Shown here piece after piece: positions 68 through 7,199 of a DNA stretch of 50,466 nucleotides; within the stretch, counting starts at the first letter, position 1; the number at the start of each line of letters is the position of its first letter. The stretch is from IMG/VR virus record IMGVR_UViG_3300034781_000002, positions 1 through 50,466 of that record; one strand, 5' to 3'. The DNA comes from a virus (taxonomy: Duplodnaviria; Caudoviricetes). The notes under the pieces were generated by a model. The model had not been told where the DNA came from. It did not search any database and saw nothing but the letters and a program-made list of their open reading frames with translations. A program made the translations under genes and the position numbers.

Positions 68-904
68 TCAGGCACCCAACTTGCGGGTCCACGGCGTCGG
101 CCACGTCTTCGGGCCAATCACGCCATCCACCTGCATCTTGCAGTTCTTCTGCCACCGACGCACGACGCTGTCCGTCTTCGCTCCGAAGAACCCATCCGCC
201 GTACCCAGGCTCGTCCAACCACGCCTGATCATCTGCGCCTGGAAAGCCTTCACCGCCGGATCCGCCGACTTCTGCTTGTCGTTTCGCCGCAGCTCCCGAC
301 CCGGATAGGCCGGCGCCTTCACCGGCGCGACCGGCGCCGGCTTGACCGGCGGCTTCGGCACAGTCGTCGTGGACGTCTTCTGCGGCGTACCAACCCCAAT
401 CGACGCCAGGTACGCCGCCACCGACTCGCCCTTGAGAATCGACAAGATCGCCTTCATCGCGGTGACACTGTTGCAGTACCGCCGCCGAATCGACAGATGC
501 ACGTGCCACAGATGATCGGCCGACGCTGAACCCACGGTGCGGGCGTACACGTCCCACCGCCGCGCCACCTTGCCGTCCGTCGTGCCATTGAACGCGTTGA
601 TGTACTTGCGCCGAGGATCGTTCACATTCTCGAACGCAGCGATCAACCGCCTCGTACACGTGATCATGTCGGCCGGACTCAGATTCATGTCCACGGCCGA
701 AGCCGTGTTGTCCGGACCCAACCGGTCGTCCGGCCGCACGATCGAATAGTTGGTCTTGGACGTCTGGTCCTCGCGTGAGATGTGGAAACCGCCACGCTTC
801 GCGTGCGCCGTATCCCCCACAATCCCGCTGATCTTGGCTGACTTGTAGACCGCCTTCCAATCAGCCGCGAACTGCTTCATCTCAGCCGTGGCAATGGTGG
901 TCAT
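68..904 (-). CDS. Endolysin: N-terminal His-rich metallopeptidase-like (M15-like) domain plus C-terminal peptidoglycan-binding domain
   Basis: C-terminal ADGFFGAKTDSVVRRWQ...VDGVIGPKTW is the PG_binding_1 signature; N-terminal H-I-S...AVD...HLWHVH metal-ligand pattern; Pro/Thr linker between them. Confidence 0.85.
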   Translation of the reverse strand: MTTIATAEMKQFAADWKAVYKSAKISGIVGDTAHAKRGGFHISREDQTSKTNYSIVRPDDRLGPDNTASAVDMNLSPADMITCTRRLIAAFENVNDPRRKYINAFNGTTDGKVARRWDVYARTVGSASADHLWHVHLSIRRRYCNSVTAMKAILSILKGESVAAYLASIGVGTPQKTSTTTVPKPPVKPAPVAPVKAPAYPGRELRRNDKQKSADPAVKAFQAQMIRRGWTSLGTADGFFGAKTDSVVRRWQKNCKMQVDGVIGPKTWPTPWTRKLGA

Positions 905-1474: not shown

Positions 1475-3007
1475 ATGACCAGCATGAAGCCGCTGTGCGG
1501 ATATCGGCGACTGTCAGTGGATCGGCACGGAACCAAGATCGGACCCCGTATCCAGACCGACACGTCCGAGGCGTGGGCGGCGCGCGAGGGGCTGGTGATT
1601 GGTCAGTGGTACGAGGACAAGGACACGACGGCTGCCGATGAAGACGTAGTGCGCGAGGGCTTCGAGCAGATGCTCTCAGACCTCGCGGCGGGCATGTGGG
1701 GCGGGATCGCGACGTGGCGAATCGACCGCCTCGTGCGCCTCAGCCCTGACTTCGAACGATGCTTCATGGTGGCCCGCCGCGCTGGCGGATTCATCGTGAC
1801 CACGCACGACGGCATGTCGACGCGCGATCCTAACGGGCTCGTCATGCTGCGAATGCAGACTATGTTCGCGGACGCCGAGGTGGCCGGGATGAAAACCCGC
1901 ATCAAGGCGAACAAGGCGGAACGGCGTAAGAGGGGTGCATTCAAGGGCGGCGGCCGGCGCCCCTTCGGTTTTGCGGGAGCGATCTACGACGAGTCCGGCG
2001 AAAAGGTGGTCAACTCGGGAAAGGTCGGGGTAGAGCATGTGCCGCACGAGGTGGCGCTACTGCGGGACGCGGCGCACCGGATCGCGCGTGGTGGTGAGTC
2101 GTACGGCGACGTGATCAAGGATTGGCATTCGCGGACGCCGCCGGTGTACGGCGCGGTCGGGTCTCCGTGGAATCCGAAGACGTTGCAGAGCATCCTCACG
2201 GCTCCCCGGATCGTCGGGAAGCAGGTCTATCGCGCGACGGATCCGGCCACCGGTGAGGTGGTGGAGGAGTTGGTCAAGGCGGTGTGGGAGCCGGTGATCG
2301 ATGAAGCGACCTGGACTGCACTCAAGGCGTTGGCGCGGCCAGGTAATCACCGAGGGGGGAAGCGGAAGTATCTGCTGAGTGGTGCGGTGTTCTGTGGGCA
2401 GTGCGGGGGTCCGCTGACGGGCGCTATCCGTAAGTATCCAAAAGGCGGCGAGCTGATGGCGACACCGACATATCGGTGCCGCAATGGAACGGCCGACAAG
2501 GAGCGCGGGTCGTGCGGAAAGCTCAGTGTGATCGCGGAGCCGGTGGACAAGCTGGTTGCGGCGCACATCTTGACCCGACTGAGGCGCACCAGGGCGGCCA
2601 TGGCGGGGGTGCTAAGCGAGGACGATGATCGAATTCATCGGGAGCTGGAAGCCGCAACCGCCGAGGTGGACGACTGCGATGCAGAGCTGAACGAGCTGGC
2701 GGCGGAGAAGGGGCGGCTCGGCTCGAAGATGAAGTTCAGCGAATGGGCGGCCATGCGGGAGCCGATCGAACGGCGGCGCGACGCTGCGGAGCGTCGGCAG
2801 GAGGCGCTAAGACAGCAGTTGTCGGTGCCGACTCCGGCGGGCGCCGAATGGAGCGATCTTCCGGCCTGGTGGGAGGGCCTGACGATGGCTCAGCAGCGGA
2901 AGTTGGTTTCGGTGTACGTGCAGGCGGTGAGGGTGTTAGCGCCGGGGCGCAGCGGGCGGCATTTCCGCGCGGAGCGCGTGGTGATTGCGCCGGCCGATGC
3001 GAAGTAG
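1475..3007 (+). CDS. int: Large serine recombinase (phage integrase)
   Basis: YRRLS catalytic Ser motif, WRIDRLVR, RPFGF recombinase domain, CGQCG...YRC...C zinc ribbon, C-terminal coiled coil; GGGAGG RBS. Confidence 0.95.
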   Translation: MTSMKPLCGYRRLSVDRHGTKIGPRIQTDTSEAWAAREGLVIGQWYEDKDTTAADEDVVREGFEQMLSDLAAGMWGGIATWRIDRLVRLSPDFERCFMVARRAGGFIVTTHDGMSTRDPNGLVMLRMQTMFADAEVAGMKTRIKANKAERRKRGAFKGGGRRPFGFAGAIYDESGEKVVNSGKVGVEHVPHEVALLRDAAHRIARGGESYGDVIKDWHSRTPPVYGAVGSPWNPKTLQSILTAPRIVGKQVYRATDPATGEVVEELVKAVWEPVIDEATWTALKALARPGNHRGGKRKYLLSGAVFCGQCGGPLTGAIRKYPKGGELMATPTYRCRNGTADKERGSCGKLSVIAEPVDKLVAAHILTRLRRTRAAMAGVLSEDDDRIHRELEAATAEVDDCDAELNELAAEKGRLGSKMKFSEWAAMREPIERRRDAAERRQEALRQQLSVPTPAGAEWSDLPAWWEGLTMAQQRKLVSVYVQAVRVLAPGRSGRHFRAERVVIAPADAK

Positions 3008-3127
3008 TTGGACGCCAACGGCGATCATGTGCGGGTCGGTCAGTTCGGCGGTGACGCCGTGCTGCGCACACAAGGCGTCGATGGTCGCCTCGGTGTGCCG
3101 CATCGCCTCGTCCCATGTCATCGCCAT
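2936..3127 (-). CDS. Small hypothetical protein convergent on the integrase (candidate recombination directionality factor)
   Basis: 63-aa ORF with CAQHGVTAELTDPHMIAVGVQLL core; overlaps the integrase 3' end. Confidence 0.45.
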   Translation of the reverse strand: MAMTWDEAMRHTEATIDALCAQHGVTAELTDPHMIAVGVQLLRIGRRNHHALRAEMPPAAPRR

Positions 3128-3209
3128 ACCGCGACGCTACGAAGGGCGTCTACGGCACCTGGCCGCGACGGACCGCGCCGCACGCATCGCGGCGTGGGTC
3201 ACGGTTTGG

Positions 3210-3551
3210 TTACGGTTTGCCGAAGGTCTTCGGGGTGTAGGGGTGTTTCGGCGTCTTCTTGACGTGCTGCGGGCCGGCGCTGTTGGTGGGGACCAGGGGG
3301 GTGGGTCCGTTGTCGCGCAGGTCGCGGCGGACCCAGGTTGCGGTGATGTAGATGACGAGCACGACGACGAGGCCGGTGCGCAGGGCGCGGGGCAGGGCGG
3401 TGAACCAGGCGAAGCGGCGCAGGCGTTTGGTCTTGGCCTTGGAGTCCTTGTAGTCGCCGAAGGCGAGGCGCATGTGTTTGTAGGCGGCGCCGAACGCGAA
3501 CGCGATGACGCAGCCGATGATGAGCGCGGTGAGGCTGCTGGTGCTGTTCAT
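3210..3551 (-). CDS. Membrane protein with two TM segments
   Basis: ATG at 3551 with GGAGGG RBS; hydrophobic LTALIIGCVIAFAFGAAY and GLVVVLVIYITATW. Confidence 0.65.
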   Translation of the reverse strand: MNSTSSLTALIIGCVIAFAFGAAYKHMRLAFGDYKDSKAKTKRLRRFAWFTALPRALRTGLVVVLVIYITATWVRRDLRDNGPTPLVPTNSAGPQHVKKTPKHPYTPKTFGKP

Positions 3552-3710
3552 GGGCGGGCCCTCCAGCGGTTGGGGCGGGCCGCGCACCTGTGCGGGGTGC
3601 GCGGCCCTGTGCCCTAGTCGCACCGGCACACGGCGTTGGAGGCGAACACCGGCGGGTAGCTCGGGCTCGCTCAGTATCGCCGCTTGCCGCAACTGATCGC
3701 AACCGTTGCG

Positions 3711-4070
3711 TTACACAGTGGGTGCGTCGCTGGGCGGCACGGGTGCCTGGACCTGCGTGCGGGTGAACATCGCGGCGGCGGCGCCGACGAAGCTCATGAT
3801 CACGGCCTGGTTCTCGGCGGACAGGTCGAGGCCGAAGCCGATGGCCAGGGCGAGCAGGGCCTGCACGAGGCCGAGGAACGCGGGGACCTGGCCTTCGCGG
3901 CGCACGGCCTTGGCGAGTACGAAGCTCAGGCCGGCGGTAGCGACGGCGTTGAGGGCGGCCTGCTGGCCGTCGGACAGGTCGATGACGAACGCGCCGAGCA
4001 GCCGGATGGCGGTGGCCACCAGGGTCAGGATGAGGGCCGGGTCGCGGCCGAAGATCCGGGCGGGGGTCAT
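3711..4070 (-). CDS. Holin-like membrane protein
   Basis: IFGRDPALI start and four short hydrophobic helices with internal duplication (DLSDGQQAAL / DLSAENQAVI), typical of actinophage holins; follows the tail genes. Confidence 0.7.
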   Translation of the reverse strand: MTPARIFGRDPALILTLVATAIRLLGAFVIDLSDGQQAALNAVATAGLSFVLAKAVRREGQVPAFLGLVQALLALAIGFGLDLSAENQAVIMSFVGAAAAMFTRTQVQAPVPPSDAPTV

Positions 4071-4073
4071 GGG

Positions 4074-4523
4074 TCACTCCAGGTTCTCGGGGAGCCGGGG
4101 TGGCTCGGGGTAGGTGGGCTGGGCCCTGCGTAGATCGACCAGGGCGTTGGCGTCCCAGACGCCGTGCGTGGCGAGGACGGCGCGGAGCCGGCTGAACGAC
4201 TCCTCCATGCGGACGACGCGGGATTCGAGGGTGGTGATCTTTTCTCGGCTGGTGGCGAGCTTGTCGGCCGTCAGTGCATCCTTCTCGGCCTGCTGCTGGC
4301 GGAACTCATCCACGAGCTTCGCGGCGTTGGCGAGGAACAGGCTGTCGGTCTCGGCCTTGACCTTCTCGGCGGTCATGCGTGACAGCTCGGCGTCGGCCTT
4401 GGCTTTGTCGTTGATCGCGCGGTCGGCGCGCTTCTTGAGCCAGGCGCCGATGAGCAGTAGCAGGACGGGGCTGAGGCCGCCAAGGAGCTTGAGGAAGTCG
4501 TCCAGGGACATCAATGAGGTCAC
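4074..4523 (-). CDS. Membrane-anchored coiled-coil protein (lysis accessory)
   Basis: N-terminal TM LLGGLSPVLLLLIGAWL then heptad-rich helix; GTGA overlap with the upstream gene. Confidence 0.7.
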   Translation of the reverse strand: MTSLMSLDDFLKLLGGLSPVLLLLIGAWLKKRADRAINDKAKADAELSRMTAEKVKAETDSLFLANAAKLVDEFRQQQAEKDALTADKLATSREKITTLESRVVRMEESFSRLRAVLATHGVWDANALVDLRRAQPTYPEPPRLPENLE

Positions 4524-5041
4524 CCCTGCCGGCGGATGATCTTCACCAGGGTCCAGAAGTGCAGGCCCATGATCGTGGTGAAGTGGGCGTAGAGGATCGG
4601 CGCGTAGGGGGCGGGCTTGGCGCCTTCAATGGCGCCGATGTACCACTGAACGGTGGCGACGCCGAAGCCGACGCAGATGGTCAGGTAGAACGCGGTGAGG
4701 AAGATCAGGCCGACGGTCTCGATCTTGCGGTTGAGCATGATGCAGCCGACGCCGAGGATGAACCCGCCGACGATCAGCAGCATCCCGATACTGGTGGGCG
4801 AGCCGGGCAGCTCCCGCAGGTGCGTCCACGCGGTGCCAGCCATGCCGTCCTGGCCGAGAGCGATGAACGCCGGTCCCATCAGCAGGGCGTAGAGACTGTG
4901 GATCCAGAGCAGGTTGAGCCGGTACCGGCGACTCTCGACGGCCTGTTCCGAGGTGCGCAAGACGTACTCGGTGAAGCCGTCCATGAGGTCGGTGAACATC
5001 TCGATGGGGTCTTGCTGTTGCATGCGCGGGGCGACCGTCAT
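4520..5041 (-). CDS. Multi-pass membrane protein (~4 TM)
   Basis: ATG at 5041 overlaps the upstream TGA; four hydrophobic segments. Confidence 0.7.
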   Translation of the reverse strand: MTVAPRMQQQDPIEMFTDLMDGFTEYVLRTSEQAVESRRYRLNLLWIHSLYALLMGPAFIALGQDGMAGTAWTHLRELPGSPTSIGMLLIVGGFILGVGCIMLNRKIETVGLIFLTAFYLTICVGFGVATVQWYIGAIEGAKPAPYAPILYAHFTTIMGLHFWTLVKIIRRQG

Positions 5042-5361
5042 CCGGCGTCTCCCTCTGGTGCTCGGGCGGCCTTGCGACGCAGCGCCCACTTGACCATCCG
5101 GGCCACCTCGTAGATGAATCCGGTGGCGCTGACGGCTTGGACGAGGTCGTTGAGCAGCATCCAGTGGTTGTCGTGGAACCCGGCGGCGACAGCGACGTGC
5201 GTGATGGCGCAGGTGGTGAAGAACCCGATGCCGAACGCGCGGGCGCGGTTGGTCATCGGCAGCAGCCGCAGGGCGGTGAACGGGACGGCGACGTAGGCGA
5301 GGGTGATCCAGATCGCGAGGCCGATGTGGATCTGGTCAAGCCAGTCGGTGTGGTGGGTCAT
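5038..5361 (-). CDS. Three-TM membrane protein with ethylene-receptor-like AYxxVP and CxxxH motifs
   Basis: ATG at 5361 with AGGAGAGG RBS; 107 aa; LAYVAVP...FFTTCAITHV...QAVSA. Confidence 0.7.
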   Translation of the reverse strand: MTHHTDWLDQIHIGLAIWITLAYVAVPFTALRLLPMTNRARAFGIGFFTTCAITHVAVAAGFHDNHWMLLNDLVQAVSATGFIYEVARMVKWALRRKAARAPEGDAG

Positions 5362-5381
5362 GAGCACGGCACCTCTCCTGG

Positions 5382-7199
5382 TCAGGACTGCCGCGTGTAG
5401 TTCTTCAGGGTGCGGACCATCCGGGCGGCCGGGGAGTACCGGCTGCGGGGGTCCTTGGCCGGCTTGGGTGGGCCGAGGGTGAGGGTGACGGCTTCGGTGC
5501 CGGACTCGTCGATGTCGACGCTGATCTCGGACACGCGGTGGGTTCCGGTGATCAGCTCGCCGCCGAGGGCGATCTTCGCGGTGACGGTGTCGCCGACGTC
5601 GATGTGGGAGCGGCCCTGCCAGAATCCGGTGCGCAGGTGCAGGGTCCAGGTGATCTGCTGGTTGGACAGTTCGGTGAGGCGGCGTTGGGCGGCGGCTTGG
5701 ATGCGGGGCAGGTTGCCGGCGGGGCGGATGCTGGTGTCGGTTTCCTGCGCGTCGCGTTGGCCGTAGGTCGTGACGTCGGTGGGGATGCGGTAGACGACTC
5801 CGCCGGCACTGTCGGAGAAGTAAAGGGTGTTGGCGTACTTGTTGCCGGCGGCCTGGATCTGCCAGCGGGTGATGGGTGACTGTCCGGTGCCGGTGTCGAC
5901 GAGGTACACGCCGTTGTCGGCGCCGCGCCGGTGGGGGGCGAGGCGCAGTTTCGGGCGGGAGCCGATGTTGTCGACCATCTCGACCCACCATTCGAAGGTG
6001 GGCAGGGTGGAGATGGATTGCAGGTTGGTGATGGCCTCGGCGACGGAGGTGCCGGGTGGCAGTTCGACGGGTTCGGTGATGGTGCCGACGAACACGCTGG
6101 TGCCTTCGGTGATCTCGGTGAGGTCGAGGTTCATGTTGGTGGGCACGACGAACCGCAGGATGTCAATGATGTTGGTGCCCTTGCCCCAGGAGGACAGCCC
6201 GGCGGCGGGATGGTTCGCGACGTCGAGGATGAGCCGGTCTTCGAGCAGGGCCCGGTAGTCGGCGTAGGTGGCGGAGACGCGGATCTGCCCGTTGTCGTCC
6301 ATGGACATGTCGACGGTGTCGGCGTTGAATCGGCCGATCGCGTCGAGGGTTTGCCGTTCGGGGTCCTGGCGCAGCCACCACAGGTCGGTGGAGCGCTGTT
6401 CCACGAGGATCGCCTTGTTGCGGGGCAGGGTGAAGTCGGTGCGGGCCTCGTCTGCGGCGTTGAGTCGCAGGGTGAACGATTTGGTGGCGGTGTCGGGCAG
6501 GGTCGTGGAGGGCACCGATGGGTACGTGCCGGCGGGTTGCCCGTAGTTCGGGGTGCCCTTCCACTGGATGCCGGTGTTCCAGGGTCCGACGCCGAGGATG
6601 TGGGTTGTGGGCCGTGGCGCCGGGGTGGGCGCGGCGATCGGGACGTAGGTCGGGGTGGGTGCGGCAGGCGGGAAGGTGGCGGCCGGCTGGTTGGGGCTCA
6701 GGGTGATGCGGAGACCGTCGGGAGTGGCGGTGCCCAGGTAGGGCGTGGTCGTGGTGGGCGTGTCGCAGGTCAGCGGCGCGGCGACGCCGGCTGGTTCGGC
6801 GGTGGTGCTGAACGCGGCGGTGGGGGTGCCCGCCAGGGCGGTCTCGGCGATGCCGGTGGGCAGGGCGACGGCGACAGCGGCCGGGTCTGCGGTGGCGACG
6901 TCGATGGCCAGGTCGCCGGTGGTCGCGGCGGTGGTGAACGTGACCGCCGGGTTGTCCACGCCCGCGGTGTCGGCGATGGCGTCGGGGGTGGCCGCGCGGT
7001 CCCCGGTCTCGGTGGCGTCGGGCTGGTCCGAGTCGACGCCCACAGCTACCCCGTCCGGGACCGCGGTGGCGGTGACGGTGGCGGTCGGCGGGTCGCTGGT
7101 GGTGGCTTCGGCCAGGTCGGCAGGAGTGGTGGTCGCTGTCCACGCCACGGTTCCGCCGAAGGGCCCGGCGCCGAAGGTGCCGCTGCCGAATGCGCTCAA
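5382..7199 (-). CDS. Minor tail protein (N-terminal Ala/Thr/Pro repeats, C-terminal baseplate-hub-like domain)
   Basis: Position after tail genes; C-terminal HIDVGDTVT...HRVSEISVDIDESGTEAVTLTLG typical of siphovirus hub proteins. Confidence 0.75.
   Translation of the reverse strand: MSAFGSGTFGAGPFGGTVAWTATTTPADLAEATTSDPPTATVTATAVPDGVAVGVDSDQPDATETGDRAATPDAIADTAGVDNPAVTFTTAATTGDLAIDVATADPAAVAVALPTGIAETALAGTPTAAFSTTAEPAGVAAPLTCDTPTTTTPYLGTATPDGLRITLSPNQPAATFPPAAPTPTYVPIAAPTPAPRPTTHILGVGPWNTGIQWKGTPNYGQPAGTYPSVPSTTLPDTATKSFTLRLNAADEARTDFTLPRNKAILVEQRSTDLWWLRQDPERQTLDAIGRFNADTVDMSMDDNGQIRVSATYADYRALLEDRLILDVANHPAAGLSSWGKGTNIIDILRFVVPTNMNLDLTEITEGTSVFVGTITEPVELPPGTSVAEAITNLQSISTLPTFEWWVEMVDNIGSRPKLRLAPHRRGADNGVYLVDTGTGQSPITRWQIQAAGNKYANTLYFSDSAGGVVYRIPTDVTTYGQRDAQETDTSIRPAGNLPRIQAAAQRRLTELSNQQITWTLHLRTGFWQGRSHIDVGDTVTAKIALGGELITGTHRVSEISVDIDESGTEAVTLTLGPPKPAKDPRSRYSPAARMVRTLKNYTRQS

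Follow-up and report, generated by a model that had tools for sequence, protein, structure and literature searches.

The IMG/VR virus record IMGVR_UViG_3300034781_000002 was analysed whole (50,466 bp, 100% complete according to CheckV; referred to as the window in the rest of the text). On its minus strand, a gene at window:5038-5361(-) codes for P0001, a protein of 107 amino acids (aa) plus stop, whose likeness to the ethylene-binding domain of ETR1-type receptors (ETR1_N) is the subject of this work. An earlier note, made from the letters of the sequence alone, had read here a membrane protein with three transmembrane (TM) helices, and its coordinates, its helix strings and its numbering of Y23, P27, C51 and H55 all proved correct. 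The strong ribosome-binding site that it had noticed is also present, as a Shine-Dalgarno sequence, AGGAGAGG (5379-5372), 10 nt ahead of the P0001 ATG. An alternative in-frame start exists at a GTG codon (5367); a lambda-type dual start (GTG-CTC-ATG, 5367-5359) was considered but discarded, since the additional residues are uncharged. After training on six long open reading frames (ORFs) of the window, a codon-usage model favoured the minus-strand frame with a log-odds of 58. P0001 opens a tightly coupled chain of genes: its stop overlaps the start of P0002 (ATGA, 5041-5038), the stop of P0002 overlaps the GTG start of P0003 (GTGA, 4523-4520), and a 3-nt spacer separates the stop of P0003 from the ATG of P0004 at 4070, so that the chain does end, as had been claimed, in a gene of a holin family (phrog_9752). 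P0001 is one of the genuine late genes of this complete genome, which comes from an uncultured, temperate, actinobacteriophage-like virus.

The AlphaFold2 (AF2) model of P0001, built from an alignment of 63 sequences described below, is a three-helix bundle with helices at residues 7-28, 38-60 and 67-100 and a mean predicted local distance difference test (pLDDT) score of 92.2; the hydropathy of the protein agrees with three TM helices. The residues that matter in what follows are A16, Y23, V26, P27, F48, C51, H55, D72 and Q75. C51 is the only cysteine of the protein, N-terminal cysteines being absent. The N-terminus reads MTHH and the C-terminal tail is basic, and by the positive-inside rule the topology is predicted to be N-out/C-in. 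The chain ends 7 residues past helix 3 and bears no fused output domain, in agreement with the earlier description of P0001 as a stand-alone domain. Fused longer relatives were also looked for, and none was found at E ≤ 0.01 among 8000 candidates of 318-2000 aa, proteins of 189-317 aa being outside the word-index searches.

The top Pfam match of P0001 is ETR1_N (PF25487), with 14.7 bits and an E value of 0.038; the match runs from residue 10 to residue 91 of P0001 and takes in positions 4-89 of a profile of 97. A word-index search yielded three relatives of P0001, and the resulting four-sequence profile, run against 1.84 billion representatives, retrieved 62 proteins at E ≤ 1e-3, 60 of which are 95-181 aa long. 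The other two, P0055 (14 matched stretches) and P0061 (8 stretches; a repeat-derived translation), are long and repetitive and were removed from the alignment as spurious. The family alignment (A2) comprises 63 sequences, from metagenomes. Nearly half of these members (29 of 63) match ETR1_N at E ≤ 0.1, with a best value of 7.5e-4, while the next most frequent family is matched by only 2 members. As a reference we used AzoEtr1 of Azospirillum brasilense, for which ethylene reception has been demonstrated by experiment (PMC11819568), a 525-aa protein that the Pfam model located on plasmid p1 and scored at 136 bits. Its ethylene-binding region retrieved 509 proteins, and AzoEtr1 together with the best 120 of these formed a receptor set gathered independently of the phage family. 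All of these best 120 carry PF25487 along with a kinase-type output (HisKA and/or HATPase_c), and many have a PAS or receiver domain as well.

When the 63-member profile was compared with the 121 receptors (first 135 residues) using hhalign, the two aligned with a probability of 91.4%, an E value of 9.2e-7 and a score of 41.7, over 86 columns that span all three helices. Scores in the controls were far lower: 17.3 for the reversed template, at most 24.7 in 100 column shuffles and at most 21.2 in 100 block shuffles (22-column blocks). Since 41.7 compares with at most 24.7 in the controls, the likeness of P0001 to the ethylene-binding domain exceeds chance, and the resemblance first noticed by eye stands up to profile comparison. 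Against AzoEtr1 alone, the same family profile gave a probability of 55.9% and an E value of 1.1e-4. Neighbours of P0001 in the ESM Atlas are clusters of 107-138-aa proteins, mostly from Uroviricota; PF25487 occurs on 36-64% of the members in four of the five cluster rows, the fifth having no common family. We conclude from these sequence comparisons that P0001 is a remote homologue of ETR1_N, belonging to the same superfamily and lying beyond Pfam's present family boundary.

Several results weigh against this conclusion. The Pfam gathering cut-off for PF25487 is 27 bits, and neither P0001 (14.7 bits) nor its relatives in loci L002 (18.0 bits) and L009 (17.6 bits) attain it, nor does any other member of the family. 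A hidden Markov model of the 121 receptor sequences matches P0001 weakly (E 0.98), although it is the sole match among 591 six-frame ORFs of the window. Comparison of folds is uninformative about the relationship because the structure libraries lack the ETR1 membrane domain: no ETR1 membrane-domain chain was found in the Protein Data Bank (PDB) copy, Foldseek with the AF2 model returned nothing at E ≤ 0.001 from this PDB library or from BFVD, VIA-align against 48,161 chains gave a best Z of 8.0 with generic hairpins and bundles, and when the PDB was searched by sequence, first P0001 and then the family profile serving as query, chance matches alone came up (E ≥ 0.3). One could hence propose that there is no true relationship and that P0001 owes its likeness to three-TM composition and a chance Cys-x3-His motif, given that every single-sequence score is sub-threshold and that structure searches yield only generic helical matches. 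This is extremely unlikely: the profile-profile score lies far above 201 composition-preserving controls, the alignment runs across three helices with Tyr, Pro, Cys and His in register at the same spacings, ETR1_N is the sole recurrent family among the members, and the ESM Atlas leads independently to ETR1_N clusters.

Among described phages the family left no trace in our searches. tblastn of P0001 and P0025 against 50,697 phage records gave no match, a megablast comparison of these records with 25 kb of window sequence found no similar genome, and no PHROG family covers the P0001 family, no PHROG being matched by more than one of the 63 members.

Seven ethylene-binding residues of ETR1 (D25, Y32, I35, P36, I62, C65 and H69) were reportedly listed by Wang et al. 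in 2006. In the alignment register, D35, Y42, I45, P46, I72, C75 and H79 of AzoEtr1 correspond to A16, Y23, V26, P27, F48, C51 and H55 of P0001. Four of the seven positions are thereby identical in P0001 (Y23, P27, C51 and H55) and one is conservative (V26). D35, C75 and H79 of AzoEtr1 align with ETR1 D25, C65 and H69 (PMC11819568), and in ETR1, C65 and H69 ligate Cu(I), one per monomer, with D25, I35, P36, I62, C65 and H69 among the essential residues (PMC6586836). Throughout the family, Tyr is found at position 23 in 59 of 63 members, Pro at position 27 in 52, Phe at position 48 in 57, Cys at position 51 in 50, His at position 55 in 51 and Gln at position 75 in 58. Position 26 is Val in 43 members, Ile in 9, Leu in 5 and another residue in 6. 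Cys and His occur together in 49 of the 63 members, which answers the question of whether C51 and H55 are conserved among homologues, and 44 members have the full set of Tyr, Pro, Cys and His. The Cys/His site of P0001 would be expected, judging from these residues, to bind a metal, most likely Cu(I). In addition, 29 of 63 members have a His within their first six residues and 14 have two or more, the overall His frequency being 4%.

The receptor aspartate is replaced in the phage family. Position 16, the Asp25 equivalent, is Ala in P0001, as had been noticed before, and across the family it is Asn (32 members), His (14), Ala (9), Ser (3), Gly (2), Cys (2) or a gap (1) and never Asp. This helix-1 position covaries with position 72 of helix 3 (N-H in 29, H-D in 11 and small-D in 13 of 63 members), P0001 having the pair Ala16/Asp72, and helix 3 of the family bears its own signature, N-(H/D)-x2-Q. 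According to the helix limits of the model, position 72 lies at about the membrane depth of His55, and positions 16 and 75 at about that of Cys51. Because positions 16 and 72 covary and their depths match those of Cys51 and His55, we infer that this helix-1/helix-3 polar pair may complete the metal/ligand site in place of the receptor Asp25, with Asp72 as a putative acidic residue of the site in P0001. Three points count against the account of P0001 that we favour below. Two of the seven ethylene-binding positions differ in P0001 (Asp25 to Ala at A16, Ile62 to Phe at F48); 11 of the 63 members lack both Cys and His, so that the metal site would be dispensable in the family; and the covariation may reflect few events, since the three pair types correspond to three clades. 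Members without Cys and His (for example P0017, P0021, P0024, P0029, P0033, P0034 and P0051) retain the remaining fold signature.

The same substitutions bear on the literal reading of the domain, in which P0001 would be a gas sensor whose Cu(I) site takes up ethylene and which sets the timing of the holin by touching it. The homology to the ethylene-binding domain, the retention of Cys, His, Tyr and Pro, the holin that closes the coupled gene chain and the provenance of the relatives from metagenome contigs all speak for it. So does the Asn found at the Asp25 position in 32 of 63 members, since an ETR1 D25N receptor still works, with an affinity lowered about 100-fold (PMC11971883). P0001 has neither Asp nor Asn but Ala at this position, and AzoEtr1 D35A, built as a predicted non-binder of ethylene, failed in complementation (PMC11819568). 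Because of the Ala and of this precedent, tight ethylene binding, and with it high-affinity ethylene sensing by P0001, is unlikely, and the gas-sensor part of the earlier note is not borne out; the Ile62 equivalent is moreover Phe in 57 of 63 members. The gene neighbourhood of the relatives, described next, also argues against this reading, which taken as a whole we regard as very unlikely.

Pattern scans recovered one further locus from IMG/VR (L002, found with alignment A4; none with A3) and 17 from metagenomes (L003-L019), so that 19 loci, including the window, could be compared. Genes were called with the codon model, and two loci were checked by hand. All 12 loci with enough downstream DNA (window, L002, L003, L004, L007, L009, L011, L012, L013, L014, L015 and L016) carry a trio of genes in which the ETR1_N-like gene comes first and is followed by an overlapping gene 2 and by gene 3. 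The products of gene 2 have 160-275 aa, a cytoplasmic N-terminal helix and three to four TM helices, and those of gene 3 have 141-187 aa, an N-terminal anchor and a long coiled coil. Four further loci (L005, L006, L008 and L010) end inside gene 2, the start of which is present in each. The three remaining loci, L017 (266-754), L018 (3235-3723) and L019 (462-971), hold a divergent 162-169-aa variant without a Pfam match, in which a long insertion parts helix 1 from helix 2 and the Asp25 position reads 'EN'; a 115-117-aa two-TM protein comes next in place of the usual gene 2, and in L018 an ORF coding for a TM-plus-coiled-coil protein lies upstream.

In seven loci the gene 2 product shows 27-36% identity to P0002, with homologues at this level standing in second place in L015, L012, L016, L007, L009 and L011; the remaining second genes have the same layout and little sequence in common with it. 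P0002 weakly matches phrog_2272, which has no assigned function. P0003 shows 48% identity to the gene 3 product of L015 (E 7e-49), the figure for L002 being 29% (E 3e-7), and it weakly matches 'hol-like' and holin PHROG families. Since basic residues come after the anchor in P0003 and ahead of the first TM helix in P0002, the positive-inside rule predicts that the P0003 coiled coil and the P0002 N-terminal helix, like the tail of P0001, would all be cytoplasmic. The gene 2 product of L004 (L004:6173-6997 (+), 274 aa) has a C-terminal PAS domain after four TM helices (PF00989, E 3.5e-10, above the cut-off), a fusion that hints at a signalling role for the trio. By PHROGs, the N-terminal part of this protein belongs to the 'minor tail protein' family phrog_4026. 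A complex prediction pairing the P0002 family with the P0001 family gave a score of 0.01 and a mark of 0.32, values that weigh neither way on binding.

The features of the window that surround the trio are collected below. On the minus strand the late genes follow the order tail genes, 605-aa gene, P0001, P0002, P0003, P0004 and two-TM gene. The phage is read as temperate because it has a large serine integrase (phrog_95, E 1.3e-68), and its large terminase is nearest to those of Mycobacterium phages (about 50% identity); we read the source as an uncultured temperate phage of a high-GC actinobacterium. The lysis region of the window is split by a plus-strand module, made up of a 76-aa ORF (1130-1360) and the integrase gene, that parts the holin and two-TM genes from the endolysin-like gene. 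In the endolysin-like protein, the N-terminal stretch of about 150 residues matches no catalytic family.

Features of the window around P0001 (positions on the 50,466-bp record)
Feature	Position	Strand	Remarks
P0001, 107 aa, three TM helices	5038..5361	-	remote ETR1_N homologue by profile comparison, stand-alone
Shine-Dalgarno-like AGGAGAGG	5372..5379	-	read from the sequence; within the 20-nt gap after the minor tail gene
P0002, 173 aa, cytoplasmic N-terminal helix and about four TM helices	4520..5041	-	gene 2 of the trio
P0003, 149 aa, N-terminal TM anchor and long coiled coil	4074..4523	-	gene 3 of the trio
P0004, 119 aa, membrane protein of a holin family	3711..4070	-	phrog_9752, E 3.5e-30; directly after the trio
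Small two-TM membrane protein after the holin	3210..3587	-	no family match
Endolysin-like protein, C-terminal peptidoglycan-binding domain	68..904	-	phrog_1493 best, E 2.4e-17; PG_binding_1, E 2.2e-12
Minor-tail-like protein, 605 aa	5382..7199	-	phrog_110 minor tail protein, E 3.9e-4
Large serine integrase	1475..3007	+	phrog_95; between the holin region and the endolysin-like gene

The idea that P0001 heads the lysis membrane genes describes an accident of this genome, where the trio adjoins the holin gene; apart from the window, only L012 and perhaps L016 have lysis genes beside it. In 11 of the 14 loci with a readable upstream gene (L002-L007, L009-L011, L013 and L015), the trio directly follows the major head gene, confirmed by PHROGs in L002, L009 and L015 and recognised in the other eight by a common head-protein sequence, and precedes head-tail connector genes. 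L015 is one of them, yet it is the locus with the third gene closest to P0003. The placement of the trio after a head gene in 11 loci indicates that it moves as a unit and that the holin is not a conserved neighbour. It is P0002 and P0003 that accompany P0001 from locus to locus, and a direct contact between P0001 and the holin is therefore not indicated; this is the second count on which the literal ethylene-sensor reading suffers. In four of the loci (L002:8226-9392, L009:10378-11523, L011:10107-11291 and L013:9786-10886) the connector genes are followed by a conserved gene for a protein of about 366-394 aa, with an N-terminus that looks glycosyltransferase-like by eye.

These positions also make the lysis link of the P0001 family weak. 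No lysis gene was seen near the trio within the 4-6 kb fetched for the 11 head-gene loci, a search for endolysin families in the L002 record gave no match, and in the window itself the endolysin-like gene lies 2.8 kb away, beyond the integrase. The link is a possible one on account of two loci in other phages. In L012 the trio comes after minor tail genes (phrog_538), and three small genes and an endolysin (phrog_1493, E 1e-29) follow within 1 kb downstream. The second came from tblastn of the AzoEtr1 domain against the 50,697 phage records, which hit only eight Maribacter phage records, of the cultured phages Molly and Colly (E 1e-3 to 5e-3). Molly1_65 (L027, MT732451.1 36990-37859), a 289-aa 'hypothetical protein', scores 60.9 bits with the same PF25487 model, so that it is a genuine ETR1_N protein; it has Asn at the Asp25 position, and its gene lies after the tail genes, directly upstream of an annotated N-acetylmuramoyl-L-alanine amidase gene. 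In L016, a two-TM protein comes next after the trio, and adjacency to lysis genes is there only a perhaps.

The mobility of the trio raises the alternative that it is a moron-like membrane cassette at variable late-operon sites, with a function apart from lysis: it might exclude superinfecting phages, keep DNA from entering, interfere with copper or redox homeostasis in the host, or have a membrane role in assembly. The trio is met in two different places, behind the major head gene in some genomes and behind the tail genes in others; such joint mobility is characteristic of morons, the phage is temperate, and the PHROG matches of third genes include a 'moron/host takeover membrane protein' family (phrog_9090). 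Against this alternative stands the lack of room for a promoter of its own, as the stop of the 605-aa gene and the start of P0001 are 20 nt apart and a scan of 2900-5700 for sigma-70-type sites saw nothing that resembles a promoter or a terminator. Pattern scans, two in number, of 185,579 species genomes confirmed no relative and so offer no evidence of carriage by lysogens, although an absence in scans that used only one or two short peptide patterns is weak evidence. Phage ETR1_N proteins furthermore recur beside cell-wall hydrolases. We hold this alternative to be unlikely.

The trio could instead be a lysis effector, P0001 acting as a class-I-type holin or holin subunit, P0002 and P0003 as accessory pore or membrane-disrupting parts, and the Cys/His pair serving in oligomerisation or gating. 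The size, topology and charged C-terminal tail of P0001 suit holins, P0003-type proteins weakly match holin, 'hol-like' and Rz-like PHROGs (E 1e-4 to 5e-6), the trio lies in the lysis region in the window and in L012, and Molly gp65 fills the usual holin slot ahead of the amidase gene. The architecture of a small membrane protein with a charged C-terminus fits P0001; as for a neighbouring endolysin, the endolysin-like gene of the window is 2.8 kb off, beyond the integrase, and the endolysin gene of L012 lies 1 kb downstream of the trio. P0001 itself matches no holin family of Pfam or PHROG: Phage_holin_2 is touched by 1 of the 63 members (E 0.006) and no PHROG covers the family. The window, furthermore, already has a strong holin-family gene, the conserved buried polar set (N/H/A16, C51, T54, H55, N71, H/D72 and Q75) resembles a ligand site more than a pore lining, and the PAS-fused partner suggests signalling. 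A direct effector role is a possible explanation, if a rather improbable one.

The account that we favour, and to which we give an even chance, is that P0001 is a kinase-less membrane sensor or regulator, probably holding Cu(I), that would use its two partners to influence some membrane event late in infection, the timing of lysis being the most plausible. The His-rich extracytoplasmic N-terminus (MTHH...) may help to capture the metal, which the Cys/His site and the polar pair (Ala16/Asp72) would hold, Cu(I) being the most likely candidate. P0001 would then report a membrane-soluble ligand, copper status or redox status to P0002 and P0003, the signal passing by contact within the membrane and by the cytoplasmic helices of the partners. 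The output would be a membrane event late in infection, for which holin-dependent lysis timing, by an antiholin-like or holin-modulating action, is the best candidate: two or three loci have holin or endolysin genes beside the trio, and Molly gp65, an independent phage ETR1_N protein, directly precedes an endolysin. Beyond the homology, the stand-alone state, the Cys/His conservation and the trio, we infer every step of this account, from metal binding and partner contacts to the output.

P0001 is a variant form of a known domain in a new context, a kinase-less phage version with two dedicated membrane partners. The claim that no such system had been described agrees with our literature search, which found no paper on phage ethylene-receptor-like proteins, supplementary tables of receptor surveys lying outside its scope, and no description of a chemical-state input to lysis control. 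In its accessible part, PMC7700396 mentions only an exchange of kinases by giant viruses, and the accessible part of PMC6324907 gives the same picture. No structure of the ethylene-receptor membrane domain has come from experiment, and how it handles copper and ligand remains a matter of debate (PMC6586836); a natural stand-alone version of about 100 aa, modelled with a pLDDT of 92, would be a convenient minimal object for structural and metal-binding work. The replacement of Asp25 by a covarying polar pair between helices 1 and 3 offers a testable idea of how the ligand specificity of the domain was retuned. The recurrence of such domains in or near the lysis cassettes of an actinophage and a Maribacter phage suggests that late in infection phages may read the host membrane's chemical state.

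A wider proposal, which we put forward as speculative and rather doubtful, is that a sensor of small molecules, gases or redox state, kinase-less, centred on Cu(I) and derived from the ethylene-receptor domain, is carried by phages whose hosts belong to several bacterial phyla. In the present actinophage lineage, a three-protein relay made of the sensor, a four-TM transducer able to carry a PAS domain and an anchored cytoplasmic coiled coil would make the moment of lysis, or of some other late event at the membrane, depend on a chemical cue within that membrane. If true, it would add a new class of input to phage lysis timing and provide a minimal model of the unsolved membrane domain of ethylene receptors.

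P0001 shares with ETR1, SynEtr1 of Synechocystis and AzoEtr1 the three TM helices and the predicted N-out/C-in topology, and with ETR1-type domains in general the helix-1 motif Tyr-x2-(I/V)-Pro and the helix-2 motif Cys-x3-His, in register. Unlike these receptors, it has no GAF, PAS or kinase output and only 107 aa, its Asp25 equivalent is Ala (Asn or His in relatives), its Ile62 equivalent is Phe and its family has a helix-3 signature of its own; it also lacks the N-terminal cysteines, is encoded by a phage and comes with two dedicated partner genes. Its closest parallel among described phages is Maribacter phage Molly_1 gp65 (Molly1_65, QQO97550.1), which is likewise a phage-encoded, kinase-less ETR1_N-type membrane domain in a lysis region after tail genes and has Asn at the Asp25 position, like most members of the P0001 family. 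Molly gp65 differs from P0001 in being a bona fide Pfam member of 289 aa, with a C-terminal extension of about 165 aa, encoded directly upstream of an amidase gene; its host is a Bacteroidota bacterium, the trio was not seen there, and its relation to the P0001 family is weak (hhalign probability 20%, E 1e-3). The roughly 165 C-terminal residues of Molly1_65 have no assignment.

Class I holins such as lambda S105 are proteins of about 100 aa with three TM helices, an N-out/C-in topology and a basic C-terminal tail, encoded by a late gene near the lysis genes. P0001 resembles them in length, TM count, predicted topology and tail; unlike them, it has no holin match by sequence or profile, bears a conserved buried Cys/His/Asp/Gln site and occurs in a genome with a separate holin-family gene. 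The lysis-inhibition sensors RI and RIII of T4, which act on the holin T, are small kinase-less membrane proteins that turn a signal into holin timing by protein contact. For P0001 they may serve as a working analogy only: there is no homology between them, and the P0001 cassette is usually not beside a holin, so what the two would have in common is a small membrane protein that relays a signal by contact.

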